Source: a phage
DNA length: 64,000 bases
Strand: one strand, 5' to 3'
NCBI GenBank assembly: GCA_025830695.1
Contig: GCA_025830695.1_4111.2
Below are positions 9,161 to 63,504 of the stretch, piece by piece. Below the pieces are notes generated by a model. The model was given only the letters and a program-made list of their open reading frames with translations, made no database searches and was not told where the DNA came from. The position numbers and the translations under genes were made by a program. How positions within the stretch are numbered: position 1 is the stretch's first letter; each line of letters starts with the position of its first letter.

Positions 9161-9221
9161 CAGAACTGATGTTCTGGTGTATTCTTAATAAACCATAAAA
9201 ATTGCGGTAAAGGATAAAATC

Positions 9222-9503: not shown

Positions 9504-9505
9504 AA

Positions 9506-9844: not shown

Positions 9845-9853
9845 GGATTGGTA

Positions 9854-10195: not shown

Positions 10196-10196
10196 T

Positions 10197-10541: not shown

Positions 10542-10550
10542 GAGACATAT

Positions 10551-10805
10551 ATGTTTGCGTTGCGTAATAAAAACACTAAAGAATTATTATGTATTGATAC
10601 CGTATGGGATTGTGCGGGATCAACTACAGTTCTTGAAGAAGGAACTGGATATTGCGTGTTTGTTGTTCATGATAGGAATGAACTCGAATTATTACTTGCT
10701 GAGTTCAATGCTGGTGGTAATCCTAACAGTACTGAATACCCTGAGATTATCAATCCAGCACCACCAGGCTCTTATGAAATTCTACAACTGTGGGAGTTGA
10801 AGTAA
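10551..10805 (+). CDS. hypothetical protein (84 aa)
   Basis: ORF with AGGAGA SD. Confidence 0.55.
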   Translation: MFALRNKNTKELLCIDTVWDCAGSTTVLEEGTGYCVFVVHDRNELELLLAEFNAGGNPNSTEYPEIINPAPPGSYEILQLWELK

Positions 10806-11185
10806 TGCGTCAAATGCACAAAGTAACCGAGCTAAACAAGCGTCTGGTTAAACAATCAATGTTCGAGGATAAAGAGTCTTATTATAACTTTAAACGTGCT
10901 GTAGAGGCTGCTATCCACATTCAGAAGCTTAAAGAACGTGGTTGTATTATTCTGGAAAATGGGTCGGAAGTTGTAACGGATGACTTTAGTGTAGCGTTTG
11001 ATGTTTCACCTGACGGGACGCTATCAATGCCCCGCTTAGGAACTGGAAACATGACTGTTTGGGTTGGCTTCACTATGGGGAATGTACCTGGTACTGTATA
11101 CGTAGATGATGCAGAATTGAAAGACAGTTTCAAAAACTTATCTTATCTTGAACCACAATACGCACATGAAATGAATTTATTTTGA
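10805..11185 (+). CDS. hypothetical protein (126 aa)
   Basis: ATG overlaps upstream stop. Confidence 0.5.
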   Translation: MRQMHKVTELNKRLVKQSMFEDKESYYNFKRAVEAAIHIQKLKERGCIILENGSEVVTDDFSVAFDVSPDGTLSMPRLGTGNMTVWVGFTMGNVPGTVYVDDAELKDSFKNLSYLEPQYAHEMNLF

Positions 11186-11186
11186 G

Positions 11187-11243
11187 TTGACAAACACATT
11201 CCGTACTATATAATGCTTATCAAGGGGATGAACTTCTCATCCC
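11187..11243 (+). promoter_or_regulatory. promoter (TTGACA-16-TATAAT) + 5'-UTR stem-loop (PeSL-like)
   Basis: TTGACA 11187-11192, TATAAT 11209-11214, hairpin GGGGATGA-ACTTC-TCATCCC. Confidence 0.6.
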
Positions 11244-11261
11244 TACAATCGAGGAACTACC

Positions 11262-11816
11262 ATGATTACTTTTAAGAAAACTGCTAACCACATCCATGAA
11301 ATCTACATTAACGGTCACAAAGCTGGCCTTCTTCGTTTACTCGCCCATCACCCTGATGCTACCGTATCTGATAATGAACCTAAAGATTGGCGTGTCTTTT
11401 TCTTTGGAAAGTACAGTGATTTTCAAGTATCAAACCTGAAGAACATTCGTTCAGTATGCACGTTAACTGAAATTAAAGAAAAGTTAGCACAAGCATTGAA
11501 AACTAATCCAGATGGTGTTCTTCCACCTGATAACTTTGTAGAGAAAGGTTATGCCTTAGCTCATTTCAAAGATGGTACTATTCAATCTATCAGTACTGAA
11601 TATGAATATCATTGGACTGAGTACTTCACTTATGGTTCGAGTAATACATTGATGGATTCACGTAGTAAATTGGAAGAAGTACTGACTCGTATGAATGAAC
11701 GCGAGCGTCAGTTATATGACAAACCAGAAATGTGGAGTTCAACTTACATTGACCGTATTGACTATGTTATTATGACTCCAATCTTTGACACTGCTTACTA
11801 TGATTCTTTGAAATAA
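11262..11816 (+). CDS. hypothetical protein (184 aa)
   Basis: ORF with GAGGAA SD. Confidence 0.6.
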   Translation: MITFKKTANHIHEIYINGHKAGLLRLLAHHPDATVSDNEPKDWRVFFFGKYSDFQVSNLKNIRSVCTLTEIKEKLAQALKTNPDGVLPPDNFVEKGYALAHFKDGTIQSISTEYEYHWTEYFTYGSSNTLMDSRSKLEEVLTRMNERERQLYDKPEMWSSTYIDRIDYVIMTPIFDTAYYDSLK

Positions 11817-11827
11817 GGATAACTTAT

Positions 11828-12004
11828 ATGAAACTACGTACTCGTAATCGACTGATGGATGCACTGTACCATGAACAGCTTTCACTGAATGAAGTGAAGC
11901 GTCAGTTAATGTACACATATCAGTTTCCCGCTCGCATTGCAAAACAACGTGCTAAAGAATTGCTGAAAGAAGCAATCGAGTACTGGGAATCTGATTCATA
12001 CTAA
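11828..12004 (+). CDS. hypothetical protein (58 aa)
   Basis: AAGGA SD; below track cutoff; fills gap. Confidence 0.4.
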   Translation: MKLRTRNRLMDALYHEQLSLNEVKRQLMYTYQFPARIAKQRAKELLKEAIEYWESDSY

Positions 12005-12043
12005 TATTACGTGATATGTCACGTTAATTAAGTGAGGCGATAA

Positions 12044-12304
12044 ATGAAAATATTATTAGTTCTAATACTACTAATACTACTAATAGTTTTACCATTTACT
12101 TTAGTATCCCCTGAACTTGCATGGAATGTATTTGTGTACTTAGTATGTACTATTGTAGTAAATGGTATCTTGTTCTTAGTTCTATTCATAAATGGAATAG
12201 GACACGGTGGAGGATGGACCAGTACTGCTGATATTGTACATAAAACCACTATGTCTTTATTTGTAATGTGGAATTTGTTCTGGACTTGGTTTGTGTTCTT
12301 CTAA
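12044..12304 (+). CDS. small membrane protein (86 aa)
   Basis: GAGG SD; two hydrophobic helices. Confidence 0.55.
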   Translation: MKILLVLILLILLIVLPFTLVSPELAWNVFVYLVCTIVVNGILFLVLFINGIGHGGGWTSTADIVHKTTMSLFVMWNLFWTWFVFF

Positions 12305-12312
12305 TTAAAAAT

Positions 12313-12684
12313 ATGAATATAGATTTGAAAGGTGCAACACGAACTGTTATCCTCATTGGGGAATATGCTATCAAGATTCCAACCTTTAAAAGTTGGAAGC
12401 TATTCTTAACAGGGATGATAGCTAACCTCAATGAACGTTCGTGGATGCAGTACTCCAAACGTAGTGATAGTAGTATCTGTCCTACGTTGTGGTCATCATG
12501 TACTGGACTAGTAACTGTACAGAAACGTTGTAAGCCAGTGCAACATAGGGGTTTATTTTGGGTGGAGTTGTGTGCTTTAGCATTGAATTCAGAGTTAAGT
12601 ACTGACTTCTTCTATTCAGATGCGAAGCCAGAAAACTTTGGATATCTGGATGGTAAGTTAGTTAAACTTGATTATGGAGATTAA
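12313..12684 (+). CDS. kinase-like motif protein (123 aa)
   Basis: DAKPENFG...KLVKLDYG resembles kinase catalytic loop and DFG-like motifs. Confidence 0.5.
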   Translation: MNIDLKGATRTVILIGEYAIKIPTFKSWKLFLTGMIANLNERSWMQYSKRSDSSICPTLWSSCTGLVTVQKRCKPVQHRGLFWVELCALALNSELSTDFFYSDAKPENFGYLDGKLVKLDYGD

Positions 12685-12685
12685 T

Positions 12686-12955
12686 ATGTACGCATTGTAT
12701 AATAAAGAAAAGAAACGATTTGCTAAGGTTGAAATTTCGATTGATACGTTTGATATGTTGGAGTACTGTATTGTAACGGACCTATATGCTAACTTGTATT
12801 ACGTTCTTGATGACGTATCAGTACTGCAACGATTGCTTGAGAATTCCAAAAGTCAATGCCAGGGCATCCATGATGGTTCATCCTATGAAACTCCTGAGTG
12901 TTCATATGGCTATCTGGACGGCTATGAGATTGTTAAGTTGGGGATCATTGAATAA
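12686..12955 (+). CDS. hypothetical protein (89 aa)
   Basis: ATG after GGAGA, 1 nt after upstream stop. Confidence 0.5.
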   Translation: MYALYNKEKKRFAKVEISIDTFDMLEYCIVTDLYANLYYVLDDVSVLQRLLENSKSQCQGIHDGSSYETPECSYGYLDGYEIVKLGIIE

Positions 12956-12961
12956 AGAAAA

Positions 12962-12986
12962 GGGTTGACTTCGGTCAGCCCTTTTT
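12962..12986 (+). terminator. intrinsic terminator GGGTTGACTTCGGTCAGCCC + T5; stem TTGACT 18 nt upstream of TATAAT
   Basis: Hairpin plus T-tract; TATAAT at 12989-12994. Confidence 0.85.
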
Positions 12987-13022
12987 GCTATAATTATTTC
13001 ATCAAGACGAGAGGATGAATAC

Positions 13023-13538
13023 ATGACACGCATTAACTTAGTACACGTTAAAGAACTTGCTGACCAACATCTGATGGCTGAATATCGTGAACTCCCACGT
13101 GTATTTGGTGCTGTACAAAAACACGTTCAAGCACGTAAGCGTGTACGTGATTTCAAAATTAATAGTACTTATCTGTTAGGTTCAGGTCATGTGACATTCT
13201 TTTACGACAAGTTATTGTACTTACAGAAGCGTCATATTGATATTGTCAACGAATGTCTGCGTCGTGGTATGAAGATTCAAAACACTGAAGTAAACGACAT
13301 TAGCGGCTTCCCTGCTGAGTTTTGTAATGACTACGTACCAACGGAGTCAGAGATTAAAATGTCTCGTGATCGTTTGATTGAGAAGCTCCAGATGAAGCCT
13401 ACGTGGTATAAGTTTACTGATGTTGAATGTCCACAGTACGTTAAAGATATGCAGAACGTAAGTAGTAAGAACGAATCTAGTACTGATATGTTCGACGAAA
13501 TTGAAGAACAAATCAAAGATGAAATGAATAATTATTAA
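13023..13538 (+). CDS. denV: pyrimidine-dimer DNA glycosylase / endonuclease V (171 aa)
   Basis: N-terminal ~130 aa closely match T4 endonuclease V ([40 protein letters not shown]); extra acidic C-terminal tail. Confidence 0.93.
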
Positions 13539-13576
13539 AGGAAAGGGTTGACTTCGGTTACACAAAGGAACATAAC

Positions 13577-13771
13577 ATGTTATTAGTATATTCAACGCGT
13601 TTCTGGATTTCTTTTATTGTACTATCGCTAATCGGCTTCGGTTTGAGTATACTCTTTTCGTGGGATGAATTGGGTACATGGTATTATGAAGTCCCGTGGT
13701 ACATGAAGATAGCTCCTTGTTATGCGGCATTGTTCGTGTCATTCCTTCTTGTTGTCTTCAGCGAGGATTAG
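13577..13771 (+). CDS. small membrane protein (64 aa)
   Basis: AAGGAA SD; two hydrophobic helices. Confidence 0.5.
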   Translation: MLLVYSTRFWISFIVLSLIGFGLSILFSWDELGTWYYEVPWYMKIAPCYAALFVSFLLVVFSED

Positions 13772-13822
13772 TTGATGTAGTATGTGATACACCAAAGTAT
13801 TTGGATATTTGATATATAAACA

Positions 13823-13851
13823 TTGACACCTGTTCTATCTTTCTGTATTAT
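13823..13851 (+). promoter_or_regulatory. sigma70-like promoter (TTGACA-17-TATTAT)
   Basis: Consensus -35 with 17-bp spacer upstream of 13878 gene. Confidence 0.55.
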
Positions 13852-13877
13852 GTACATCACCAAATGAGGAATACAAC

Positions 13878-14237
13878 ATGGCATCTTTAAGTGAAATCGC
13901 AGAATACAACCCACTAACAATCTCAACAATTCAACGTACAAAAACTTTTTATTTCCGTCCTGCTGATGGATGGAAACGTGGAATGAATGGTGACTATCGA
14001 GTACTGGAAGATTCGCTCATCGAGCGTATCAACTCTGAACTACAGAACTATGAAGGTGTTAAAGTTGTGCGTTCAACTTCTCGTTATTTTGAGTACTACA
14101 TTGAGTCTTCAACTGTAAATGAAAACTCATCATTATCGGTGGACAACACTGATATTCTTCGTAATGCAGTTGGTATGTTATGCAACATTGCAGAAGAAAT
14201 GGGATTAACTATTAGTACTATGAGTGAATTAGAATAA
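13878..14237 (+). CDS. hypothetical protein (119 aa)
   Basis: ORF with GAGGAA SD. Confidence 0.6.
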   Translation: MASLSEIAEYNPLTISTIQRTKTFYFRPADGWKRGMNGDYRVLEDSLIERINSELQNYEGVKVVRSTSRYFEYYIESSTVNENSSLSVDNTDILRNAVGMLCNIAEEMGLTISTMSELE

Positions 14238-14243
14238 CATAAA

Positions 14244-14268
14244 GGGTTGACTTCGGTCAGCCCTTTTT
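14244..14268 (+). terminator. intrinsic terminator GGGTTGACTTCGGTCAGCCC + T5; stem TTGACT 18 nt upstream of TATAAT
   Basis: Hairpin plus T-tract; TATAAT at 14271-14276. Confidence 0.85.
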
Positions 14269-14304
14269 GCTATAATCATTTCATCAACTGAAGAGGGTAA
14301 AGAA

Positions 14305-17622: not shown

Positions 17623-18285
17623 ATGATGAAATCAAAATTAGGTTTGTTTTATAAAAACTATTTTGTTAAACAACGTAAATTTATAAAAAAATATTTCTCT
17701 GGCGAGAAGTCTAGTCCTATAATCTTTAAAAGACCAAGTTATAATACTTACTTAGCTGGTGCTAAACAGTCTAAGAAATTTATTACTCTTTTACATAAAA
17801 ACAAAATTAAAGCTTCTTATGTTGAAACGAGAAGAAACTCATCAATAACTCCTGGTGATTTTATTGAGTACGGATGTTTCAATATTAAGTACAATGATAA
17901 TACATACTTTATGGATATTGATTGTAATACATCCAATCTTTTTAACATTGTAGTAAATCCATTAAAACAATATAATGTTTATGGTGATTCTATTATCAAA
18001 TTAATCAAAAACAAAGATAGCTTTGATTTTGAAATAAATGTTTTAGATGATAATTTTGACGAAGTACCAGTAAACCCTGAAATCTGTGATATTTTAAACA
18101 GTTTAAAAGGTAGTACCTACAATATATCATCTGATTTAATGTTTCAGTACTCATTAATCCATAAAGATATTGAAAAGTATATTGAATGCTCCAGAATTTT
18201 GAATTTTCTCTATGATGAATTTAAAAAGAGTTCTAAAATAACTGCATACACTTTGTACAATATTCCTAAAATGGTGAATCTTTGA
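17623..18285 (+). CDS. hypothetical protein (220 aa)
   Basis: AAGGAG SD; end converges on minus-strand array. Confidence 0.6.
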   Translation: MMKSKLGLFYKNYFVKQRKFIKKYFSGEKSSPIIFKRPSYNTYLAGAKQSKKFITLLHKNKIKASYVETRRNSSITPGDFIEYGCFNIKYNDNTYFMDIDCNTSNLFNIVVNPLKQYNVYGDSIIKLIKNKDSFDFEINVLDDNFDEVPVNPEICDILNSLKGSTYNISSDLMFQYSLIHKDIEKYIECSRILNFLYDEFKKSSKITAYTLYNIPKMVNL

Positions 18286-19418
18286 CAAATACAGTACTGG
18301 CAACTCCACCGTCTGTAATATTTTGTCCAGTACTGTAAATTTGTATACCATCGGTTAAGTAAGTTCTGTATAAAGTTGCTGTAACATATACGTTATTCAT
18401 ATTCATCTCTGTTGGTAGTACACATTTGGTATAGGCCGACACATCGGTTTGTGTACCTATACCTAATTGTCCTGCGTTATCGCCTGTGTTATTACCAGTT
18501 GCGTAAACACCCAATGAAGTTATAATATGATTAGAAAAATATGAATAACCTACACTGCTTCTTATTATATCGCCAGGTGCTTGTGTTGTTTGTCTTAACG
18601 AAATATATGTTTGTGATGTAGAACCATTTGCTAACTGACCAAAGTATTGACCACCACCATGATATGCAAATAATTTATTAGTACTATTATTATTTGCTAT
18701 AGCAAAAGCAAAGTAACTTGAGTTTGTTGTATAATCTTTTACTGTATAGGTATTAGTTATTTGAGAACATAACGTGTACTTTGAATATAACGTCATGTCG
18801 GTTGTACCTACGCCTGATATTGCACCAGTATAATACAATCTTCCATCGGTTCCAATAAAACCTTGCATAAGAAAATTTGCCAATATTTTGGATGGTGTAA
18901 CTCCAGTAGGTACTGTTCCTTGTACAAATGATGAAAGTGAATCAGTACTTCTACCATTTCCTAGTTGACCATAACTACCATAGCCTGTATTCCATATAGT
19001 GTTGTCTGTGCATAATACGCTCAGTGCTCCTGCACTAACTACAATTTGTTTTATTGTTTTGCCTAGGGCTGTTATTCTATCAAACACTATCTTTGCAGAA
19101 GACCACGTTGTTGACTTATCAGTTGATAAACCGAATGATGCACCATTTCCAGCGTACCACATCGTATTATCTTTCTTTTTTATTAAGGTTGACTCATACC
19201 CGCACCCATAGATCTTCTACGTTTGTATTGCATAAAACCCATTTCGTTTGTGTTATAATATTACCTATACCCATTTGCCCAAACTCTTGAGAGCCTCTAC
19301 TGTACAACGTACCATCTGACATAAGGGCAAAAACTGTCGTATCAGATGAAGCTATTTTTGTAACAGAAGGTTGTATGTTCTTTTTTGATGATGTGATAAT
19401 TCTTCCAAAGGGTAGCAT
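18266..19418 (-). pseudogene. RCC1-like repeat protein, disrupted copy (paralog 1)
   Basis: MLPFGRI N-terminal fragment stops at 19194; rest resumes at 19162 in another frame after a 31-nt A-rich gap. Confidence 0.5.
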
Positions 19419-19489
19419 TGTATCCTCCAAATGTAAATCGTTATTATATTTAGGACAAAAAAATGCCAGTACAAAATACTGGCTTTATT

Positions 19490-53094: not shown

Positions 53095-53111
53095 CAAAAA
53101 AGAATAAAAAA

Positions 53112-53136
53112 GGGATTGACTCCGGTCAGTCCCTTT
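53112..53136 (+). terminator. intrinsic terminator variant GGGATTGACTCCGGTCAGTCCC + TTTG
   Basis: Third copy of this variant. Confidence 0.7.
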
Positions 53137-53223
53137 GCTATTATATACGCATAGACAAAAACTAGCCCACAGGGTGCATAGGTGTATCTAAAATATATAG
53201 TTAATAACGGTGAGTAACTATCT

Positions 53224-54532: not shown

Positions 54533-54630
54533 TGAAATAAAAGGGATTGGACTATGGCAAAATGCGTAGGGGGCTAAAGGGCGGGTAACCTTAGCGACTT
54601 CGATAAAGGGGTATTACGAATAAAATGTTA

Positions 54631-54658
54631 TTGACTTTTTATATGAATCGTATAAAAT
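54631..54658 (+). promoter_or_regulatory. promoter (TTGACT-16-TAAAAT) for mini-gene array B
   Basis: Only clear promoter before array. Confidence 0.45.
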
Positions 54659-54688
54659 ATGATTGATATTAATTTTAAGGGAGTCCCT

Positions 54689-54886
54689 ATGCGTATTTTA
54701 ACTAAAGAACAGCACCACGAAAGACTTATCAATAACATGGCTATGATAATGTATAAGTCCCATGACCGTGGTATTGCCTATAAGCGTGAATTAATTATGG
54801 CACTATTCATTGGAACTAACTTTCAGGAAAGGTATGTCAACGATTGGATTTGGTATTTAATTGAAGATATAACGAGTAAACTATGA
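54689..54886 (+). CDS. mini-protein, array B (65 aa), LGTNYQ family
   Basis: ATG after AAGGGAG; FIGTNFQERYV motif. Confidence 0.55.
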   Translation: MRILTKEQHHERLINNMAMIMYKSHDRGIAYKRELIMALFIGTNFQERYVNDWIWYLIEDITSKL

Positions 54887-55083
54887 AAATGCGTATTTTA
54901 AATAAAGAAGAATATCAATCACTGTTACGTAAAAACTACGTAAAGATTTACAACACAGACACACACGTAGAACGAATGGAGTTATACCTTTTGATTACAT
55001 TGGGAACAAACTATCAGGGTAGATGGGTGTGGCAATATATGGATACATTGAAAAATAAAATATTGTCCACGAGGAAACAATGA
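54883..55083 (+). CDS. mini-protein, array B, LGTNYQ family
   Basis: ATGA overlap; LGTNYQGRWV. Confidence 0.55.
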   Translation: MKMRILNKEEYQSLLRKNYVKIYNTDTHVERMELYLLITLGTNYQGRWVWQYMDTLKNKILSTRKQ

Positions 55084-55289
55084 AAACTATAACACGAACC
55101 CAATCATACGGTCTTATCTTGAAATACATGGACTTAATGGTGGATATCAGCAAAGACCTGCCTAAAACTGAAATTGAAGTTGCAAGAGCAGAGATCCGCA
55201 TGTTGGCTGTACTGAACACAAACCATCAGGAAGATTATGTTGAAGAATGGATTCGATTTTTAATAGAAGATATTAAGAGTAAAATATGA
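55080..55289 (+). CDS. mini-protein, array B
   Basis: ATGA overlap; LNTNHQEDYV. Confidence 0.55.
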   Translation: MKTITRTQSYGLILKYMDLMVDISKDLPKTEIEVARAEIRMLAVLNTNHQEDYVEEWIRFLIEDIKSKI

Positions 55290-55501
55290 TTATTATAGAA
55301 AACTCATATCAATATACTGAACGCATCGCTGCCAGACAACTTGAAATCCTCATAATATACGAAGAGACGTCTGATTTAAACTTAGCCGAGGTATTGGAAA
55401 ATGAAATACTTTTGGGTGCATTCTTGGGAACAGACTATCAGGAGTATTATGAGGAAAAGTATTTGTCATCTCTTGAGAAATACATCAGGAGCAAATTATG
55501 A
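55286..55501 (+). CDS. mini-protein, array B
   Basis: ATGA overlap; LGTDYQEYYEE. Confidence 0.55.
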   Translation: MIIIENSYQYTERIAARQLEILIIYEETSDLNLAEVLENEILLGAFLGTDYQEYYEEKYLSSLEKYIRSKL

Positions 55502-55710
55502 TTATATTAACACCTGAAGAATATAAGAAACGTTTTAATTCTGTCCAGACTGAAATATTACTTATATACCTTTCAAATGCAGACCTTAACTTATCAAGGG
55601 CAATGGAGAAGGATTTACTTATGGGTGCATTTTTGGATACAGACTTTCAGGAGTATTATGTAGGGAAATACTTAATTGAACTTCAGAACTACATTAAGAG
55701 TAAACTATGA
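55498..55710 (+). CDS. mini-protein, array B
   Basis: ATGA overlap; LDTDFQEYYV. Confidence 0.55.
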   Translation: MIILTPEEYKKRFNSVQTEILLIYLSNADLNLSRAMEKDLLMGAFLDTDFQEYYVGKYLIELQNYIKSKL

Positions 55711-55934
55711 AACATTTAAGTAATATTGAGAAGATGAGAATTATCATTGATGCATTAAACAAATACGATACCCTTTTACAAATAAAAGGTTTAACTCGAT
55801 TGGAACACAAGATAAACACCACCGATGTACGCATGTTGGCTGTACTGGGGACGAACTTCCAGGAAGAGTATGTTATTGCACACATAGTTGCACTCAAGAA
55901 TTACATTATGGACAAATGTAATGAACATCATTAA
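55707..55934 (+). CDS. mini-protein, array B
   Basis: ATGA overlap; LGTNFQEEYV. Confidence 0.55.
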   Translation: MKHLSNIEKMRIIIDALNKYDTLLQIKGLTRLEHKINTTDVRMLAVLGTNFQEEYVIAHIVALKNYIMDKCNEHH

Positions 55935-56145
55935 TAACTTTGAATACGAGGCCCGTGCTAAGAGTGCCAGAAAAAAAGAGAACACCATTTACTTCACTAT
56001 GATGTACTTACAATGGACTGAAATTGAAGAAAAGGTTGCTGAAGTATGGATGTTGGAATTCATGGGGACGCAGTATCAGAATAGGTTTGCGGGTGAGTAT
56101 ATCGATGTTCTTATGAAACAAATAGAAAGAAAGGAAAAGAACTAA
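55924..56145 (+). CDS. mini-protein, array B
   Basis: Start set at internal ATG; MGTQYQNRFA. Confidence 0.5.
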   Translation, partial: NIINNFEYEARAKSARKKENTIYFTMMYLQWTEIEEKVAEVWMLEFMGTQYQNRFAGEYIDVLMKQIERKEKN

Positions 56146-56303
56146 TGGTTTTCATTAACATATCTGACCAACTCGATACTAAACTAGAAGTCGAGCAGAG
56201 TGAGGGATGGATGCTGTACTTTCTTGGAACTTCTCATCAAAATTTTTATATCCATGAACACATAGTTGCACTCACAAATCTAATAAGGGATAAATGTAAA
56301 TGA
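56145..56303 (+). CDS. mini-protein, array B (52 aa)
   Basis: Below track cutoff; LGTSHQNFYI motif. Confidence 0.4.
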   Translation: MVFINISDQLDTKLEVEQSEGWMLYFLGTSHQNFYIHEHIVALTNLIRDKCK

Positions 56304-56557
56304 AACACTTGACGGACGATGAATATTCACTTAGAATTCGAAAGCTCACCCCAGAAGCAAGAGTAATCTACGATGACGATGCACTTTCATGGAACGAGAT
56401 GAAAGTTAAAGTTCATGAGCTATGGTTGCTGTACTTTGTGGGAACCCAATATCAAGAGAAATATTGTACCGATTATCTTGAACAACTAATGGATCTTATA
56501 CAGATAAAACTAAATGAACGAATTGTGGAAAAATATGAAAACTTTATCAAGCACTGA
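56300..56557 (+). CDS. mini-protein, array B (85 aa)
   Basis: ATGA overlap; VGTQYQEKY. Confidence 0.55.
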   Translation: MKHLTDDEYSLRIRKLTPEARVIYDDDALSWNEMKVKVHELWLLYFVGTQYQEKYCTDYLEQLMDLIQIKLNERIVEKYENFIKH

Positions 56558-56786
56558 GTATCAGACTGCCCTCTTCTCTCTTCTAAACACCCTTCGCACT
56601 AACAATAAACTTTATAATTCCCGTGAAGCTGATATCGTCAACGCTGATGTATATCTTAATAAATTCATAGGGACTAACTATCAAGAACTGTTCACTCTAC
56701 GATATATCTCTGCATTGAGAAACGAAATATCAGATAAAACCCGCCAAGCCAGAAGAGAATGGAAGAAACAATGCGACAAAGACTAA
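56535..56786 (+). CDS. mini-protein, array B
   Basis: Start uncertain (56514 or 56535); IGTNYQELF. Confidence 0.45.
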   Translation: MKTLSSTEYQTALFSLLNTLRTNNKLYNSREADIVNADVYLNKFIGTNYQELFTLRYISALRNEISDKTRQARREWKKQCDKD

Positions 56787-57019
56787 ATCACAAAATGTAT
56801 TGTAAACTATTGCAGACACTGGCACAGAAACACTATGACACGGTATCTGAAATATTACCCTATGATATCATGCGTTTACTTCACTGTGAGGCCGAGATGC
56901 TTGTACTGATGACAGGCACTGATAAAACAGCAATCGCCAGATCGATAGAGCAATATATTGATGCACACTGCCAACACATGAGAACCGAAATCTGGAGGAA
57001 AGAGAATGATAATCCTTAA
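56771..57019 (+). CDS. mini-protein, array B, divergent
   Basis: TGTDKTAIA replaces consensus. Confidence 0.45.
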   Translation: MRQRLNHKMYCKLLQTLAQKHYDTVSEILPYDIMRLLHCEAEMLVLMTGTDKTAIARSIEQYIDAHCQHMRTEIWRKENDNP

Positions 57020-57221
57020 TGAGTATCAGTATCATTGGAGGTTACAAACTATCAAATCAAAAGTGTATAGTATTGTGTTAAACAAATCTATTGCACAAGA
57101 GGACAAATGTGTTATAATAGCTGAAATGAAGTTGGGTGTATTCGTAGGGACAAACTATCAAAACATCTACACTGACGTATTATTAAGTTCCTTACGTAAC
57201 AAGGTGGTATCCAAAATATGA
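57006..57221 (+). CDS. mini-protein, array B
   Basis: VGTNYQNIY. Confidence 0.55.
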   Translation: MIILNEYQYHWRLQTIKSKVYSIVLNKSIAQEDKCVIIAEMKLGVFVGTNYQNIYTDVLLSSLRNKVVSKI

Positions 57222-57436
57222 GAAATTTACAAGGCTTTGAATACATCAGACTCCTGAAAACATGTGGAAGCAGAAGGAGAATGATATCAAGCGATAAGAG
57301 CATCCAAGCTAACCTTAAGCACGCACTAGTAACTGAACTCTATGTAGGTGCACTCTTAGGCACAAACTATCAACAAATGTATGTAGATCTATGGATTGAC
57401 GCTCTACAGAAAGAGGTTAAAAGTAAATGCAAATGA
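57218..57436 (+). CDS. mini-protein, array B
   Basis: ATGA overlap; LGTNYQQMYV. Confidence 0.55.
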   Translation: MRNLQGFEYIRLLKTCGSRRRMISSDKSIQANLKHALVTELYVGALLGTNYQQMYVDLWIDALQKEVKSKCK

Positions 57437-57645
57437 TTAATTTAAGTAAAGACGAATTTTATGTTCTACTGGCGAAAACTTATCCAGCACGGAAGGCCGT
57501 TTATGATAGTCACATTATTGAACCCTCAAAGAAGTTGATTTTAGTAAATGAGATTAAGATGCTTTCAGTCTTAGGAACAAACTATCAAGAGAATGCTGTA
57601 CTGATGTTAATTGATGCCCTCCAGAGAGAGATACAAAGTAAATGA
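57427..57645 (+). CDS. mini-protein, array B
   Basis: LGTNYQENAV. Confidence 0.55.
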   Translation: MQMINLSKDEFYVLLAKTYPARKAVYDSHIIEPSKKLILVNEIKMLSVLGTNYQENAVLMLIDALQREIQSK

Positions 57646-57866
57646 TTAATTTAACTTACCATGAATATCAAAAACGTTTAAATGCATCCAGAGATATAAG
57701 GATTCAAATATTCAATAACAAAAGATTGAAGCCTGATATCAGAAAAATCAAAATTATAGAAGCAGAGTTATGCAACTTTCTAGGGACCAACTATCAGGCA
57801 GGTAAGGTAAAAAACTATCTTAGAGAACTAATGAATAGTATTGAAAATAAATGTAAGGGTAATTAA
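57642..57866 (+). CDS. mini-protein, array B
   Basis: ATGA overlap; LGTNYQAGKV. Confidence 0.55.
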   Translation: MINLTYHEYQKRLNASRDIRIQIFNNKRLKPDIRKIKIIEAELCNFLGTNYQAGKVKNYLRELMNSIENKCKGN

Positions 57867-57867
57867 C

Positions 57868-58107
57868 ATGAAAATGATTAAATTATCTCAAGCAAAATAT
57901 AAAGAACGCCTGGTAAAAATTGCACCTGGACTTAATGAAATCCATCACGGAGAAGTCATTAAACACGGAAATAAGATGATTATGAAACTTGAGTTAAAGG
58001 TGGGTGCATTCATAGGAACAAACTATCAGGAGTATTATGTAGATGAATACATAATCGCACTTAAGAGATATATTGGAAGAAAACTATATCTACAAACTAA
58101 AGAATAG
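57868..58107 (+). CDS. mini-protein, array B
   Basis: Start set at internal ATG; IGTNYQEYYV. Confidence 0.5.
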   Translation: MKMIKLSQAKYKERLVKIAPGLNEIHHGEVIKHGNKMIMKLELKVGAFIGTNYQEYYVDEYIIALKRYIGRKLYLQTKE

Positions 58108-58136
58108 TATTGAAAATAAATGTGAGGTTGATGAAC

Positions 58137-58400
58137 ATGCAAATGATCAATTTAAGTAAAGATGAATATACCGAGCGTATGACAAAAATTACGCACAAAC
58201 GTAATACAATCTATCACAACCCAGAAATTCAACACAGTAAGAAAATGATTATGATGCGTGAGTTAAAGATGGGTGTATTCTTAGGAACAAACTATCAAGA
58301 TACAGAAGTAAATCGCTTAATCGCGGAGTTACTACTGGAAATCAGAGGTAAGCTGTACTTTTATCAAATGACCCAACCACTGAGGTGTACTAAGAAATGA
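58137..58400 (+). CDS. mini-protein, array B
   Basis: Start set at internal ATG; LGTNYQDTEV. Confidence 0.5.
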   Translation: MQMINLSKDEYTERMTKITHKRNTIYHNPEIQHSKKMIMMRELKMGVFLGTNYQDTEVNRLIAELLLEIRGKLYFYQMTQPLRCTKK

Positions 58401-58612
58401 ACAACATCACATTGCAAGAAAGATTCATCCGAATCAACTATGCAATTACCAAATTAGATGCTACTATAGGATTCCAAAGTCTACCATACAAAACCAGATT
58501 GTTATTAGAGTGTGAAGCTAAGTTGGGTGTACTGTTAGGGACGCAACACCAACAACGATATGTGGAAATCTGGATTGACCTTTTAACCCAAAATATATAT
58601 GAGAGAATGTAA
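58397..58612 (+). CDS. mini-protein, array B
   Basis: ATGA overlap; LGTQHQQRYV. Confidence 0.55.
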   Translation: MNNITLQERFIRINYAITKLDATIGFQSLPYKTRLLLECEAKLGVLLGTQHQQRYVEIWIDLLTQNIYERM

Positions 58613-58843
58613 ATGCAAAATGAAATGATATACTTAACGAATGAAGAATTTCAAGAGAAGATGTTAAAAACCAAAAACATTACTCTTAAGTTCGTTCCAA
58701 ATCAATCAATATCTGAAGTATCTGCAAATGTATTGTTTCAGAAGCTACCATACGTTCTTGGAACTGATAAACAAGAATTTATGGTTCAAAATATGATTGA
58801 ACATCTTATAATGAGTATTAAGGAAAAAGTAAATGCAAAATGA
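58613..58843 (+). CDS. mini-protein, array B, subtype MQNEMIYLT
   Basis: LGTDKQEFMV; paralog of 58833. Confidence 0.55.
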   Translation: MQNEMIYLTNEEFQEKMLKTKNITLKFVPNQSISEVSANVLFQKLPYVLGTDKQEFMVQNMIEHLIMSIKEKVNAK

Positions 58844-59087
58844 AATGATATACTTAACCTATAATGAATACGTCGAGAGATTAGTTCGTGCCAAGAGATA
58901 TACCAATAAACGTCCAATTGACCTAAACCAAACCCCAGCAGAAAGGAGTGCAGAAGTATTATTCCAATCACTACCATATCTTCTGGGAACTGATAGACAA
59001 GAGGAATATGTTGCACGTATGATTAGATATCTTAAAATCACTATTAAGGAAAAAGTAAATGAAAATGAAATACTTAACAGACGATGA
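58833..59087 (+). CDS. mini-protein, array B, subtype MQNEMIYLT
   Basis: LGTDRQEEYV; shared SPAERSAEVL segment. Confidence 0.55.
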   Translation: MQNEMIYLTYNEYVERLVRAKRYTNKRPIDLNQTPAERSAEVLFQSLPYLLGTDRQEEYVARMIRYLKITIKEKVNENEILNRR

Positions 59088-59310
59088 GTTAAAAGAACGA
59101 CTAATTAAATCAAGAAAACATACAAATCAACTTCCAAACGACACAAACAAGTCTCCAGCGGAAAGGAGTGCAGAAGTTTTATACATTCAACTCATGTACT
59201 TTCTTGGCACTGACAGACAAGAGTATTACATTGAAAGTATGCTTCGATATCTTAAATTCTCTATAAAGGAAAAGATACATGATCAAGTATTTAAAAATCC
59301 TAACAGCTAA
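59059..59310 (+). CDS. mini-protein, array B
   Basis: LGTDRQEYYI; shares SPAERSAEVLY with 58833. Confidence 0.5.
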   Translation: MKMKYLTDDELKERLIKSRKHTNQLPNDTNKSPAERSAEVLYIQLMYFLGTDRQEYYIESMLRYLKFSIKEKIHDQVFKNPNS

Positions 59311-59521
59311 TGAATATCATAAGATTGTAATGAAGACTAATAGTGCTTACGCTAAAAAATCAAACCCCAAGTACATACTGGAACACACATTCGAAGAACG
59401 ACAACTAGCTTTAGTTGAAGCAAAACTTCTTGCACTCTTAGGAACAAACTATCAAGAAGAATACATCAGAAAACTAATATACCTTTTAACTAAACATATA
59501 AGAAAAAGAAAAAATGCATGA
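59279..59521 (+). CDS. mini-protein, array B
   Basis: LGTNYQEEYI. Confidence 0.55.
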   Translation: MIKYLKILTANEYHKIVMKTNSAYAKKSNPKYILEHTFEERQLALVEAKLLALLGTNYQEEYIRKLIYLLTKHIRKRKNA

Positions 59522-59748
59522 AACACTTGACAGATGATGAACATGGGCTTATAGTAATGGATGTAATCAACATCGAATACAAAAAGTTGATACGCTATCG
59601 TTGTTATGAAGATAAGCAACTCGTTCTAGCAGAACAGAAGTTGTTTCGACTCTTAAACACAAACTACCAAGCACAATACGAAGAATCGTATATGTACCTT
59701 TTGGCGAGGAAAGCAAAAAGAGATTATGAAAATTTTAAGCAAAGGTGA
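59518..59748 (+). CDS. mini-protein, array B
   Basis: ATGA overlap; LNTNYQAQYE. Confidence 0.55.
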   Translation: MKHLTDDEHGLIVMDVINIEYKKLIRYRCYEDKQLVLAEQKLFRLLNTNYQAQYEESYMYLLARKAKRDYENFKQR

Positions 59749-59947
59749 TTCAGTAATATTACTTATAGAGAGTTCAAGTAAATTCTTAAACATAACACTG
59801 TCTGATATAGATGAAGATGACAAAGAAGTACTGAGAGCAGATTTAAGAGTACTGTTACATATCGGAACAAACCTACAAGAAGAATATGTAGAGTGCTACA
59901 TCAATGAACTTAAAGAATCAGTACTGAGAAAATGCAAATGCAAATGA
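59726..59947 (+). CDS. mini-protein, array B
   Basis: IGTNLQEEYV. Confidence 0.5.
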   Translation: MKILSKGDSVILLIESSSKFLNITLSDIDEDDKEVLRADLRVLLHIGTNLQEEYVECYINELKESVLRKCKCK

Positions 59948-60165
59948 AAATCATTACCGATGTAGAATACCTAACAATCATAAATGGACTGTTTTTGAAG
60001 CTCTTCGTCATTAACACATCAGATATACCAGATATGGATAAAATTATTAAGAGAAATGAAGTCTATGTTCTAGCTACCCTTGGAACGAACTATCAAGAAC
60101 ACGACATTAAAGATTATATTAATACACTTAAACGAGCTATTGAACTAAAATGCCAAAACCACTAG
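59932..60165 (+). CDS. mini-protein, array B
   Basis: LGTNYQEHDI. Confidence 0.5.
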   Translation: MQMQMKIITDVEYLTIINGLFLKLFVINTSDIPDMDKIIKRNEVYVLATLGTNYQEHDIKDYINTLKRAIELKCQNH

Positions 60166-60365
60166 GAACAGCAGAATACATTGAACTCATGGGATTACAC
60201 TTCTCATCCTTTCAGAAACTTATGCGAGAATCAAAGAATGATTTAGAATATACCATCAGAGGTTCCGATTTAAGAATGCTTCTCACCCTAGACACAGATT
60301 CCCAAGAGCGATTTGTCAATGAGCATATTAGAGCACTTTTAATGGAAATTAAAAGTAAACTATGA
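60150..60365 (+). CDS. mini-protein, array B
   Basis: LDTDSQERFV. Confidence 0.55.
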   Translation: MPKPLGTAEYIELMGLHFSSFQKLMRESKNDLEYTIRGSDLRMLLTLDTDSQERFVNEHIRALLMEIKSKL

Positions 60366-60577
60366 AGATAATATCAAACCAAGAGTACTTGGCACTATTC
60401 AGGAAGAATAATCACAAATATATGGCACTTGATTCAAGAACTGATATAAGTGAACTTGAAAAAAATCTTTTGCGTTCAGATATGATAGTACTGACACTCT
60501 TAGGAACACAGCATCAAGAGAGAACTGTTAATTCACACATAGGTATTCTTATACAGATTGTACAGGAAAAGATATGA
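60362..60577 (+). CDS. mini-protein, array B
   Basis: ATGA overlap; LGTQHQERTV. Confidence 0.55.
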   Translation: MKIISNQEYLALFRKNNHKYMALDSRTDISELEKNLLRSDMIVLTLLGTQHQERTVNSHIGILIQIVQEKI

Positions 60578-60795
60578 GAATCATAACACAACAAGATATT
60601 CTTAAGTTCACAAGGGTTCATGCATCTGAATTTGATGCTATATTATCAAAAAGTTACAATGACCCTTATACACAAGATGTACATTACAGTGAATTATGGA
60701 TGTATATACTTTTAGGTACAAATAAGCAAGAGCAAGCCGTACAGAAGTATTTGACAGCTTTACGTGATGCTACTGCTAATGGAGTATGTGTTTAA
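60574..60795 (+). CDS. mini-protein, array B
   Basis: ATGA overlap; LGTNKQEQAV. Confidence 0.55.
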   Translation: MRIITQQDILKFTRVHASEFDAILSKSYNDPYTQDVHYSELWMYILLGTNKQEQAVQKYLTALRDATANGVCV

Positions 60796-60796
60796 T

Positions 60797-61039
60797 ATGA
60801 AAGTACTGACAGAACTAGAAATGTATCATAGATTTAATAAGTACTATCATTTACTTAAGCCTATACAGAGGATTAAATGTCCATTTGAAGAGAAACAGGT
60901 TTTAATCTATGAGCACAAGTTCTTTGTATCATTAGGTACAGATCAACAAGAGTACTATTTGACGTTGTACTTGATTACATTAATAGATTTAATTCACTAT
61001 AAAACCAAACAAGCTAATAAAGAGAAATATGAAAACTAA
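60797..61039 (+). CDS. mini-protein, array B
   Basis: Start set at internal ATG; LGTDQQEYYL. Confidence 0.5.
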   Translation: MKVLTELEMYHRFNKYYHLLKPIQRIKCPFEEKQVLIYEHKFFVSLGTDQQEYYLTLYLITLIDLIHYKTKQANKEKYEN

Positions 61040-61373
61040 TATACAACTCAAGGTATATAAATCATTTGAACATACATATATCAAAAGTAGTCTATGTAGA
61101 GATGTAATGGATTACAAGGGTAAACCATTCACAATTACCTATGATTCTTATGTTAGTGATTTATATATATCATTTGTTAATTACGAAAATAAAATATACA
61201 AGCACGTTGATATTAAAGATTTAAGTACTTTATCACCAGAGGAATACTTTCAGGAATCATTAGTATGGGATTTAGAGTTTCCTATGCCATTAGTACATAA
61301 GATGATAGTACTAATGAAAGAATCTAAACAGGAGCCTAATGGTGATTATGAAGAACACATCGTTGAGTATTAA
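61029..61373 (+). CDS. hypothetical protein (114 aa), EEYFQESLV family
   Basis: LSPEEYFQESLVWDL; paralog of 4036, 61339, 62045. Confidence 0.55.
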   Translation: MKTNIQLKVYKSFEHTYIKSSLCRDVMDYKGKPFTITYDSYVSDLYISFVNYENKIYKHVDIKDLSTLSPEEYFQESLVWDLEFPMPLVHKMIVLMKESKQEPNGDYEEHIVEY

Positions 61374-61743
61374 GAGTACTGATAATATTAAGAGTTATAC
61401 AAGCTCAAGTACTGTGACAATCGAAGTAAATTCTATTAATGCTGGTAATGCATTAGATAAGTTCTTTATTGCTCAAGGGTACAGGAAAGATATTCATCAA
61501 TATTGTTCAGTATATGGGGAGTACAATAGTACTGAAGATATAATTTATTGGTCAACACATCAAGATTATATAACTAAAATTGGCGTTCCAGATGTTAGTA
61601 CTTTATCTGAAGAAGAATACTTTCAGTACAGCTTAGTACATGATTTACCTATACCTTTAGGGTTAATTAAGGGTATGCAGGAAGAGGTTCATAAGCTTAA
61701 ATCCATGAGTAAAGGTACTTTCATTAGAACAGTGCAATACTAG
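61339..61743 (+). CDS. hypothetical protein (134 aa), EEYFQYSLV family
   Basis: LSEEEYFQYSLVHDLPIPLG. Confidence 0.55.
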   Translation: MVIMKNTSLSIKSTDNIKSYTSSSTVTIEVNSINAGNALDKFFIAQGYRKDIHQYCSVYGEYNSTEDIIYWSTHQDYITKIGVPDVSTLSEEEYFQYSLVHDLPIPLGLIKGMQEEVHKLKSMSKGTFIRTVQY

Positions 61744-61802
61744 CTTGACAGTACTTTTCATTACTGATATAGTACACTAACGTTAATCATAGGGTAAAAA
61801 TT

Positions 61803-62048
61803 ATGTTAAATTTTTTAAATTTCCTTATCGTCTTGTGTATTGTTCTTGGGATTGCACCATTTGTATTGTATTTCATGGATTCAGATGAAATGCAGAAGAT
61901 GAATTGCACAAGGACAGGACAGAGTAGAGTAGAGACGATTCTTATGCCTGTTACGGTTATTGTTAACAACATGCCCATTACAAACATGGTCCCTACCCTA
62001 ACGACAACGTACCAGTACTCTTGTGCTGACGGAGAGAGGTGGAGATGA
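61803..62048 (+). CDS. small membrane protein (81 aa)
   Basis: N-terminal hydrophobic helix. Confidence 0.5.
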   Translation: MLNFLNFLIVLCIVLGIAPFVLYFMDSDEMQKMNCTRTGQSRVETILMPVTVIVNNMPITNMVPTLTTTYQYSCADGERWR

Positions 62049-62365
62049 AATTTAATATAGCAAAAACATCGAGTATATGTATTTTTGGTTATGCTGATGA
62101 GTTAGGTGATATTGACATTCTTTTGTACAAAAAGGATGGTGTTATGCATTTCAAGTACCAGGATGAAGAGGCAGACAATTATCCTTTACCTAATTTAGTA
62201 CAAATGCAGGAAGATGAATTATTCCAGTACAGCTTAGTATACGACATTGATATTTGCACGATGCCAGTACTAATTAGTATTCAAAAAGTGATGCTCGATA
62301 TGTATGATAAGCTAATACAAGGTACATCAGGGAGAATCATTGAAATCGATATACAAGACAATTAA
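62045..62365 (+). CDS. hypothetical protein (106 aa), EEYFQ-like family
   Basis: ATGA overlap; EDELFQYSLVYDID. Confidence 0.5.
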   Translation: MKFNIAKTSSICIFGYADELGDIDILLYKKDGVMHFKYQDEEADNYPLPNLVQMQEDELFQYSLVYDIDICTMPVLISIQKVMLDMYDKLIQGTSGRIIEIDIQDN

Positions 62366-62558
62366 TCAAGAATGGAAGACCCAAAAGTACAGGGAATTCA
62401 ACAGGAATTTTACAAAAGATGCATTGAATTTAAAAACAACAGAGTTTGATATGTTTATTTTTCTTGGAACACGTTCACAAGAACAATTTGTTCATTATTA
62501 TATAAATTCGTTGCGAACGGAGATAGTATGCAAAACACAGGGTATTATAAAAAGGTAA
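62340..62558 (+). CDS. mini-protein, array B-like
   Basis: FLGTRSQEQFV. Confidence 0.5.
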   Translation: MKSIYKTINQEWKTQKYREFNRNFTKDALNLKTTEFDMFIFLGTRSQEQFVHYYINSLRTEIVCKTQGIIKR

Positions 62559-62794
62559 ACCAATATTTGTACGCTACAAAGTACAGGGATTTTTGTTTAA
62601 AGGGTGGTGATGAAGATTTTTCTTTGCGATTATCAGAATTTAATCTGTTATTTTATCTTGGTACAAAAGAACAAGAAGAAATGGCACAGAAATTTATCAA
62701 GCACCTTTTACAAAAAATTAATATGCAAATTTTGATGCTTAAGTTACAGAATGAGATAAATGAATATGAATCCAGAAATAGTTCAGGATCTTAA
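62528..62794 (+). CDS. mini-protein, array B-like
   Basis: YLGTKEQEEMA. Confidence 0.5.
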   Translation: MQNTGYYKKVNQYLYATKYRDFCLKGGDEDFSLRLSEFNLLFYLGTKEQEEMAQKFIKHLLQKINMQILMLKLQNEINEYESRNSSGS

Positions 62795-63152
62795 AAAAGT
62801 AATATTTCTTTTGAATACCAGAAGTGAATTGTATACAGAGTTAAAAGAGATTAATGCATTTTATCAGAATTTTGTAATCCAAGAGATCAGTGATTTAATT
62901 ACAGATGCATTATTTGAATTATCGGAGAAATACAAAGGTTCAGAGTTCAGTGTTAAGAATGTTATTCGTCCAAGTGCAAGGAAAATTATATTATCACATT
63001 TTACATTTGACAATAAAGATTTATTCAGTCATAATCCAAGTACAGCTTTATATTTTATTCCTGATTCAGACAAAAATCATCCTATTCATTACGGATGGAT
63101 TTTGTCATATATAGTACAAGGAAAGGAGTATCCTATTAAATGGAAAGATTAG
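62760..63152 (+). CDS. hypothetical protein (130 aa)
   Basis: Complete ORF overlapping upstream gene. Confidence 0.5.
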   Translation: MNMNPEIVQDLKKVIFLLNTRSELYTELKEINAFYQNFVIQEISDLITDALFELSEKYKGSEFSVKNVIRPSARKIILSHFTFDNKDLFSHNPSTALYFIPDSDKNHPIHYGWILSYIVQGKEYPIKWKD

Positions 63153-63300
63153 GGCGATTAGATTATTACACAATTAATACAAATTATTTGTTGCGTAATA
63201 TAAAATCCGATTACAAAATATGGATAAAGAACAGAGATAGCATGTGTTATGAATTTTATTTAGATTATGCTATCAAACGATTTTTAAGAGAAGAACATTA

Positions 63301-63504
63301 ATGCAAAAGATTAATACGATAACATTAAATGCATTACAGGATTCATTATTAGATAGTATTAAGATGTATTACAATATACATTTGAAGGGTGGTATTGATA
63401 ATTACGATTATTATTTGAGTTTAATTACATTTGAGCACCTTTCAGTACAGGACAGGATTTTACATCCTACAAATCCTAGGTATCCATCGATAGGTAAATT
63501 ATGA
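63301..63504 (+). CDS. hypothetical protein (67 aa)
   Basis: Complete ORF. Confidence 0.5.
   Translation: MQKINTITLNALQDSLLDSIKMYYNIHLKGGIDNYDYYLSLITFEHLSVQDRILHPTNPRYPSIGKL

Follow-up and report, generated by a model that had tools for sequence, protein, structure and literature searches.

The question raised by the stretch of phage DNA analysed here (the window: 64,000 nt, contig GCA_025830695.1_4111.2 of assembly GCA_025830695.1) is what a jumbo phage does with 31 paralogous genes of 52-90 amino acids lying within 8.1 kb on the plus strand, at 54,689-62,794. These genes, referred to as array B, amount to an expansion, specific to one jumbo-phage lineage, of paralogous small genes that are probably early. 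Considering the data described below, we infer tentatively, with a probability of about 45%, that array B is an early, translationally coupled operon driven by the host RNA polymerase, and that its products would be cytoplasmic binders that share one scaffold, differ at the surface and serve host takeover or counter-defence.

The window was assigned to an Asteriusvirus jumbo coliphage. The block 54,600-62,800 was 99.5% identical to the corresponding DNA of phages vB_EcoM_G17 (MK327931, 341,935-350,141, minus strand; hereafter G17) and Sharanji, and 84-98% identical to that of about 30 further Escherichia and Salmonella jumbo phages of the genus Asteriusvirus (PBECO4, 121Q, phAPEC6 and others). 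The matching features in the related phage records are annotated as "hypothetical protein" throughout.

A mechanical list of open reading frames (ORFs) contained a nearly gap-free plus-strand chain of ORFs of 52-134 amino acids running from 54,659 to past 62,794. A hidden Markov model (HMM) of the family recovered 31 of them at E-values of 1e-18 to 1e-26, with the best other ORF in the window at E=0.15; this test is circular, because the model was built from the array members themselves. Independent checks were provided by PHROG 4148, a family of unknown function that was matched end to end by 30 of the 31 members (best E 9.3e-27; member 1 aligned to positions 1-71 of 74), and by single-linkage clustering of blastp matches, in which 30 of the 31 fell into one cluster. 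A fragment family, phrog_28039, also of unknown function, goes with PHROG 4148. Thus, the array described in a first-pass annotation of this DNA was present where it had been placed, far beyond chance, and the profile search that was run on it identified the family. The count of about 34 tandem mini-genes with a shared motif had to be lowered, since four of the 35 ORFs in the interval are non-members. These four, three genes of a second family (phrog_13866) and one membrane-like ORF, break up the array at 61,029-62,365.

Multiple alignment of the members confirmed the C-terminal block reported earlier (E-h-x-h-L-x-x-L-G-T-N-Y-Q-E-x-Y-V-x-x-Y-I-x-x-L-x-x-x-I-x-x-K) and revealed a conserved N-terminal pattern as well (M-K-x-L-T-x-x-E-Y). 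One column, a Thr, was invariant, and Gln and Leu were more than 90% conserved. Across the members, the motif was encoded with five Leu, four Gly, four Thr and two Gln codons; therefore, it is conserved as protein and not as DNA. Cysteine, present 0-3 times per member, was not conserved, and no metal ligands were found.

Member 13 was modelled with AlphaFold2 from an alignment of the 31 paralogs only, which gave a predicted local distance difference test (pLDDT) score of 97.8 and a predicted template modelling score (pTM) of 0.83. The model has helices at residues 6-14, 17-25, 31-45 and 52-71, and residue 2 is bridged to the invariant Thr. Models of other members taken from BFVD, which had been built independently, superposed on it at template modelling (TM) scores of 0.72-0.92. 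In the model, the L-T-x-x-E and G-T-N-Y-Q segments look like helix N-capping boxes. Helix 4 displays a conserved i/i+3/i+4/i+7 face (profile positions 57, 60, 61, 64, 68 and 71), with which its most variable positions (55, 58, 59, 62, 67 and 69) alternate. Conservation among paralogs went with slow change of the corresponding columns among orthologues (Spearman 0.57, p 1e-7). None of the 31 reading frames is broken, although the members have diverged to approximately 31% identity. The array genes are real and encode proteins that are predicted to fold.

The genes are tightly packed. Among the 34 junctions, there are 12 ATGA stop/start overlaps, 18 other overlaps of 1-44 nt and four junctions without overlap, so that the packing noted in the first-pass annotation was upheld (30 of 34 overlap) and its statement that ATGA overlaps predominate was not (12 of 34). 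A Shine-Dalgarno 4-mer was found upstream of 17 of the 31 starts, compared with a background of 13%. Because these sequences often lie inside the conserved C-terminal K/R-S-K codons of the upstream gene (AAGAGT, AGGAGC), the C-terminal conservation may in part serve translation of the downstream gene. The description of the locus as a large, translationally coupled array of diversified mini-proteins was supported in size, packing and diversity, and the overlaps point to the coupling. Neither an Rfam match nor a transfer RNA was detected in the array region.

The position of the array was defined by three features:

33,924-54,591, plus strand: direct terminal repeat (DTR) of 20,668 bp, placed from G17, vB_Ec-M-J and Sharanji, with annotated genes that all read toward the array
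54,631-54,658, plus strand: promoter-like site P1 at the array head, TTGACT-16-TAAAAT, sigma-70 type, 10 of 12 consensus positions
61,745-61,773, plus strand: promoter-like site P2 in the only sizeable gap of the array (59 nt), TTGACA-17-TATAGT with TG, 11 of 12 consensus positions plus TG

The G17 record carries the DTR at both ends, its position 1 corresponding to window position 54,591 and its end, 370,817, to window position 33,924. In vB_Ec-M-J, the annotated DTR likewise stops at 54,591, and the repeat determined for Sharanji with PhageTerm is 20,668 bp (PMC11895373), equal to the length implied here. In phage fEgEco12, whose termini were confirmed by restriction mapping (PMC13070987), the orthologue of member 15 lies approximately 3.1 kb beyond a DTR of 20,993 bp, which is the same layout. 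Since P1 begins 40 bp beyond the inner DTR edge and the first gene follows at 54,689, the first transcription unit of the unique sequence behind the DTR is array B, which is read in the direction leading away from the terminus.

The -35 hexamer of P1 and a consensus-like -10 hexamer were retained in seven other Asteriusvirus genomes. Both hexamers of P2 and its TG were kept in seven of eight genomes, the exception being UE-S1, with a -35 of TTGACG. Therefore, the earlier view that a single promoter precedes the array was correct as to the conserved site at its head and incomplete as to the second, better site inside it. Within the DTR, 18 sigma-70 sites matching at least 11 of 12 positions were found on the plus strand, compared with 0.59 +/- 0.79 expected, and 10 of the 18 were perfect (TTGACA-16/17-TATAAT). 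The G17 annotation places 14 terminators in the DTR and none inside the adjacent array. It follows that the DTR is a string of small independent units for the host polymerase, whereas the array is one long packed polycistron. Judged from sequence, the locus thus has two marks of an early module: it lies beside a long DTR and reads inward, and it has host sigma-70-type promoters.

Several other observations were made on the terminal repeat. A number of the DTR promoters lie within or right after terminator-like hairpins (for example, 53,109-53,144, AAAGGGATTGACTCCGGTCAGTCCCTTT, then TATTAT), a layout suggestive of a terminator-promoter cassette that recurs between small genes. At 54,560-54,620, the inner DTR boundary falls within a G+C-rich sequence (...GCGTAGGGGGCTAAAGGGCGGGTAACCT|TAGCGACTTCG...); this sequence is nearly invariant in eight Asteriusvirus genomes, while the flanking DNA varies, and is a candidate recognition or cleavage site for generation of the repeat. 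Another tandem family, consisting of 11 small genes (60-87 amino acids; motif MHKEFY...P...LIFRY; 31,039-34,832, plus strand), spans the outer DTR edge, 33,924; about four of these genes lie inside the DTR and the remainder outside. This family is unrelated to array B (hhalign probability 0.2%). A tandem array of mini-genes is thus present at each edge of the DTR.

The age of the paralogs and the selection acting on them were studied. Paralog identity had a median of 31% and a maximum of 55% (genes at 58,613 and 58,833), the best pair at the DNA level was 74% identical over 226 nt, Tandem Repeats Finder reported no array, and adjacent genes were barely more alike than distant ones (34% versus 31%). 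Therefore, it may be concluded that the duplications are old; sub-families with recent duplication, as claimed in the first-pass annotation, were not seen, nor were the near-identical copies that mark recent or ongoing amplification. When five other genomes were compared one by one, 23-29 of the 31 genes had a reciprocal-best orthologue of at least 60% identity. The pooled Nei-Gojobori ratio of nonsynonymous to synonymous substitution rates (dN/dS) of the array orthologues against these five genomes was 0.34-0.38, compared with 0.23-0.31 for 20 flanking genes. The notion of a rapidly evolving family did not withstand this check, since old paralogs with mostly one-to-one orthologues across the genus evolve at a dN/dS modestly above that of their neighbours.

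In the array and its flanks (54,600-64,000), identity between the same two phages switched gene by gene from 100% to approximately 60-70%. With phage UB, for instance, it was 100% at members 1, 12 and 13 and 65-69% at members 6, 10 and 23. This pattern indicates cassette-like allele exchange across the whole early region.

The proposed mechanism is as follows. Once the phage DNA is in the cell, the E. coli RNA polymerase would use its sigma-70 factor to start at P1, 40 bp into the unique sequence, and transcription would run for approximately 7 kb without an evident terminator, with a second start at P2 serving the last genes. Ribosomes would move from gene to gene via the overlapping stop and start codons and the Shine-Dalgarno sequences in the C-terminal xSK codons, and all paralogs would consequently be made together and in similar amounts. 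The products would have a common core, consisting of the N-terminal T-x-x-E helix cap, the LGTNYQ loop bridged to residue 2 and the heptad-like buried face of helix 4, and each would present a different surface (isoelectric points, pI, of 4.3-9.9). They would act neither as virion parts nor as enzymes and would bind different host, host-defence or competitor targets stoichiometrically in the cytoplasm during takeover.

The host-takeover setting named in the first-pass annotation fits the distance of P1 from the DTR, the 18 DTR promoters and the virion proteome of phAPEC6, in which none of the array orthologues gp462c-gp489c was among 62 proteins identified by mass spectrometry (PMC7247149); proteins of 6-10 kDa are easily missed by this method, which is one of the points that weigh against the proposed role. 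Promoter-like sites at 50-64 kb numbered 71, compared with 65 in shuffled sequences, which is no excess, and P1 itself fits the consensus at only 10 of 12 positions. In the literature searched, no transcriptome or phenotype was found for any Asteriusvirus. The dN/dS of the array does not reach 1 and exceeds that of the flanking genes only by a factor of about 1.2-1.5, and the mosaic of 60-100% identity is common to the flanks; hence, there is no signature specific to an arms race.

A bolder form of this explanation is that array B is a hard-wired repertoire of about 30 surface-diversified versions of a previously unseen four-helix scaffold, expressed together from the first operon of the unique sequence beyond the DTR, each neutralising a different variant of a defence effector or host factor and together providing broad, pre-emptive counter-immunity. 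Comparison of the model with the PDB gave no specific fold match, and PDB sequence profiles gave nothing. No Pfam or NCBIfam family was matched by more than one member, and all matches were below the curated cut-off. PADLOC defence models gave scattered matches to single members, each 1 of 31 (best E 5.8e-4). The members thus have no sequence or fold similarity to catalogued or solved anti-defence, defence or DNA-binding families, and no homology ties the family specifically to anti-defence. The repertoire in this full form was regarded as doubtful.

The products might instead be nucleic-acid-binding regulators, that is, small DNA or RNA binders with which the phage adjusts its own or the host's transcription or coats DNA. 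In favour of this, the members are small and helical, their genes lie in an early-type region, 14 of the 31 are basic (pI above 8), and there is a precedent in phage G, where putative transcription factors underwent paralog expansion (PMC7824862). However, seven members are acidic and pI spans 4.3-9.9, so that charge is not a family trait, and the connection of helix 3 to helix 4 in the model is a 6-residue capped loop and not a classic turn. The members showed neither a recognisable DNA-binding fold, helix-turn-helix or other, nor a uniformly basic surface, and a regulatory role was considered unlikely.

It was also examined whether the array could be largely dispensable filler, copies of little individual function that arose as tandem duplication expanded the genome until it filled a larger capsid (the ratchet idea). 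This is how Hua et al. read the array of phage 121Q (PMC5646251), and it would accommodate both a copy number of 25-31 between genomes and a dN/dS somewhat above that of neighbouring genes. However, filler should not have kept 31 intact frames at approximately 31% identity, nor a dN/dS of about 0.35 and not about 1, nor the contrast in conservation between buried and exposed faces. One-to-one orthologues are retained across the genus, and multi-copy sets persist in distant uncultured lineages. Dispensability of the array therefore appears quite unlikely.

The early setting, the diversified binders and the non-virion character would serve equally well if the targets were not host functions but competing phages, satellites or plasmids that share the cell, and alleles that are mosaic gene by gene between co-circulating phages fit such weapons too. 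The members lack the membrane or periplasmic signals typical of exclusion proteins, the only membrane-like ORF (61,803-62,048) being a non-member, and a purely inter-phage or anti-mobile-element role was given a small chance. A non-virion hetero-oligomer, in which co-translated paralogs assemble into an intracellular scaffold or lattice, was judged very improbable: coupling would yield near-equimolar synthesis and the conserved hairpin of helices 3 and 4 could be an oligomerisation module, but the very confident model of the monomer shows a closed bundle of four helices whose hydrophobic face is buried, and copy number differs between phages, which a fixed stoichiometry would tolerate poorly. 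A place inside the virion or a decoration role, such as that of inner-body or ejected proteins, is hardly credible here. In other jumbo phages, paralog families occur among the inner-body proteins. Phage 121Q shows an inner-body-like bubblegram pattern (PMC5646251). However, no phAPEC6 orthologue was among the virion proteins, and late genes do not have promoters of the sigma-70 type found here.

The distribution of the family was studied. HMMER over 1.84 billion cluster representatives returned only 93 matches, and all named ones were on phage-sized contigs of approximately 350 kb or in Asteriusvirus phages. By tblastn, the family was found in 36 phage records, every one Escherichia or Salmonella, and no match was found up to E 1 in the relatives RaK2, GAP32 or CBB. 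Copy number ranged from 25 (121Q) to 31, always on one strand and in the same genomic place. Database entries list many members under the name "hypothetical protein [Escherichia coli]"; the contigs concerned, 343-360 kb long, are whole Asteriusvirus genomes within E. coli isolate assemblies. Complete RefSeq E. coli genomes contained no family member. Divergent members were detected on two uncultured low-GC (29-32%) contigs, 14 on L013 (16 kb) and 16 on L015 (20 kb), which had no DNA or protein match to isolated phages. There they are scattered among other small genes, and a few have an extra C-terminal domain of approximately 55 amino acids. As far as these sequence searches reach, Asteriusvirus and a small number of uncultured relatives are the only carriers of the family.

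The individual genes are listed below, with family HMM E-values and with "mechanical ORF" denoting the start in the ORF list where it differs. The first gene most likely starts at ATG 54,689 and not at 54,659, because a conserved ribosome-binding site, AAGGGAG, precedes the former, whereas the ATG of the latter overlaps the -10 hexamer of P1 and is missing in phages UB and CMSTMSU. Members 23 (in Sharanji) and 30 (in G17 and Sharanji) look like genes missed in public records.

54,689-54,886, plus strand: member 1, 65 amino acids (aa), mechanical ORF from 54,659; E 9e-21, PHROG 4148 E 7e-20; conserved ribosome-binding site
54,883-55,083, plus strand: member 2, 66 aa; E 6e-20
55,080-55,289, plus strand: member 3, 69 aa; E 2e-23
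55,286-55,501, plus strand: member 4, 71 aa; E 2e-19
55,498-55,710, plus strand: member 5, 70 aa; E 1e-22
55,707-55,934, plus strand: member 6, 75 aa; E 8e-24
55,921-56,145, plus strand: member 7, 74 aa, mechanical ORF from 55,888; E 7e-23; ATG start as in the Sharanji and G17 annotation
56,145-56,303, plus strand: member 8, 52 aa, without the N-terminal helices; E 4e-18
56,300-56,557, plus strand: member 9, 85 aa; E 1e-26
56,514-56,786, plus strand: member 10, 90 aa; E 3e-20
56,759-57,019, plus strand: member 11, 86 aa, with a divergent motif (TGTDKT) and a 6-residue insert in the alignment; E 6e-20
57,006-57,221, plus strand: member 12, 71 aa; E 8e-24
57,218-57,436, plus strand: member 13, 72 aa, the structure-modelled member with four helices; E 4e-25
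57,427-57,645, plus strand: member 14, 72 aa; E 8e-24
57,642-57,866, plus strand: member 15, 74 aa; E 1e-25; tblastn matches only in the 36 Escherichia/Salmonella jumbo-phage records
57,868-58,107, plus strand: member 16, 79 aa, mechanical ORF from 57,841; E 6e-26
58,137-58,400, plus strand: member 17, 87 aa, mechanical ORF from 58,110; E 3e-25; 74% identical to member 16 over 226 nt
58,397-58,612, plus strand: member 18, 71 aa; E 7e-21
58,613-58,843, plus strand: member 19, 76 aa; E 1e-21; forms the closest pair with member 20 (55% identity)
58,833-59,087, plus strand: member 20, 84 aa; E 5e-24
59,059-59,310, plus strand: member 21, 83 aa; E 4e-25
59,279-59,521, plus strand: member 22, 80 aa; E 2e-21
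59,518-59,748, plus strand: member 23, 76 aa, a gap in the Sharanji annotation; E 3e-19
59,726-59,947, plus strand: member 24, 73 aa; E 3e-23
59,932-60,165, plus strand: member 25, 77 aa; E 8e-25
60,150-60,365, plus strand: member 26, 71 aa; E 5e-21
60,362-60,577, plus strand: member 27, 71 aa; E 2e-22
60,574-60,795, plus strand: member 28, 73 aa; E 5e-22
60,779-61,039, plus strand: member 29, 86 aa, mechanical ORF from 60,764; E 3e-22
61,029-61,373 and 61,339-61,743, plus strand: second-family genes 1 and 2, 114 and 134 aa, motif STLSxEEYFQxSLVxDL, closing the first operon; blastp cluster, phrog_13866 (function unknown)
61,803-62,048, plus strand: membrane-like non-member ORF, 81 aa, with a hydrophobic N-terminal segment in its translation; phrog_8826 (function unknown)
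62,039-62,365, plus strand: second-family gene 3, about 106 aa; phrog_13866 E 4e-40
62,340-62,558, plus strand: member 30, 72 aa, TTG start with GGGAG upstream, a gap in the G17 and Sharanji annotations; E 1e-20
62,528-62,794, plus strand: member 31, 88 aa; E 2e-18

The second family had no Pfam match, and its genes flank both P2 and the membrane-like ORF. Elsewhere in the window, about ten tandem paralogs of 300-430 amino acids at 18,266-30,525 (minus strand) match PHROG 4219, "regulator of chromosome condensation" (RCC1-like). The phAPEC6 virion proteome includes the "DNA condensation proteins" gp549 and gp551 (PMC7247149), and the RCC1-like array is probably the "array of closely related genes" of that paper. 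At 560-14,276, across the genome junction, ten further near-consensus sigma-70 promoters were found on the plus strand and none on the minus strand, which suggests another block read by the host polymerase at the far chromosome end.

Neither the existence of the array nor its family is new, since the former was mentioned by Hua et al. (2017) and the latter is catalogued as a PHROG. In one sentence on phage 121Q, Hua et al. described an array that they read as genome growth by tandem duplication (mBio, PMC5646251). It is almost certainly array B, because the only other large array here, the RCC1-like one of about 10 genes, is too small; genes 319-346 of 121Q, a phage of the same genus, align with the array block, and 25 of them match the family HMM. 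The array remains unusual, as the first-pass annotation had it, in its size and placement, and less so in having been noted before. The wording "very similar" in that report overstates a median paralog identity of 31%, and the paper neither defines the family nor deals with its fold, the selection on it, its promoter or its link to the terminal repeat. PHROG 4148 contains the same proteins as a sequence cluster and carries no functional information. No paper was found in the literature on the fold, selection, promoters or DTR-edge position of the family. New here are the sigma-70-type site P1 40 bp past the edge of the 20,668-bp DTR and the excess of DTR promoters, 18 compared with 0.6 expected.

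The 31 retained paralogs make up approximately 2% of a 350-kb genome and form the first unique operon behind the repeat, a large investment for the phage. If they are diversified inhibitors, they would be a compact source of new host-takeover and anti-defence activities and an example of repertoire-style counter-defence in a phage; if the binder repertoire is true, the scaffold could be mined for new inhibitors. If they are dispensable, the array would be a clean test case for jumbo genome growth by tandem duplication. The question is now testable, as the family has been defined, gene starts corrected, two unannotated members (59,518 and 62,340) added, promoters located and a confident model obtained.

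Among known systems, a region of short ORFs with RpoD-type promoters in the related phage CBB was proposed to be an early host-takeover region (PMC5259590). In Bacillus phage G, Zn-ribbon genes have multiplied within the lineage to about 35 copies, for which a role as transcription factors or in structural binding of DNA has been proposed (Iyer et al. 2021, PMC7824862). There, as in the present phage, a jumbo genome holds about 30 or more tandem genes for a single family of very small proteins without an assigned role (PMC7824862, PMC5646251). The two differ in that the products of array B are all-helical and without metal ligands, belong to another phage lineage and host, and have no sequence relation to those of phage G.

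Anti-CRISPR and anti-restriction loci and the gene accordions of viruses, such as poxvirus K3L, involve copy-number expansion of one family followed by divergence. Array B would resemble them in this and in encoding small, fast-turnover, orphan early proteins that serve as stoichiometric inhibitors. It differs in that its products resemble no solved or catalogued anti-defence protein, that no associated helix-turn-helix regulator gene was seen, and that its duplications are ancient, without current amplification. SPO1 genes 37-60, the T5 pre-early region and the T7 class I genes are host-takeover modules associated with terminal repeats. As here, small, mostly orphan genes are read in one direction from strong host-type promoters in or beside a long terminal repeat. 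However, the genes of those modules are unrelated to one another and have individual promoters or terminators, and in this they resemble the DTR of the present phage, whereas array B, just outside the repeat, is a long coupled polycistron made up of 31 copies from one family.

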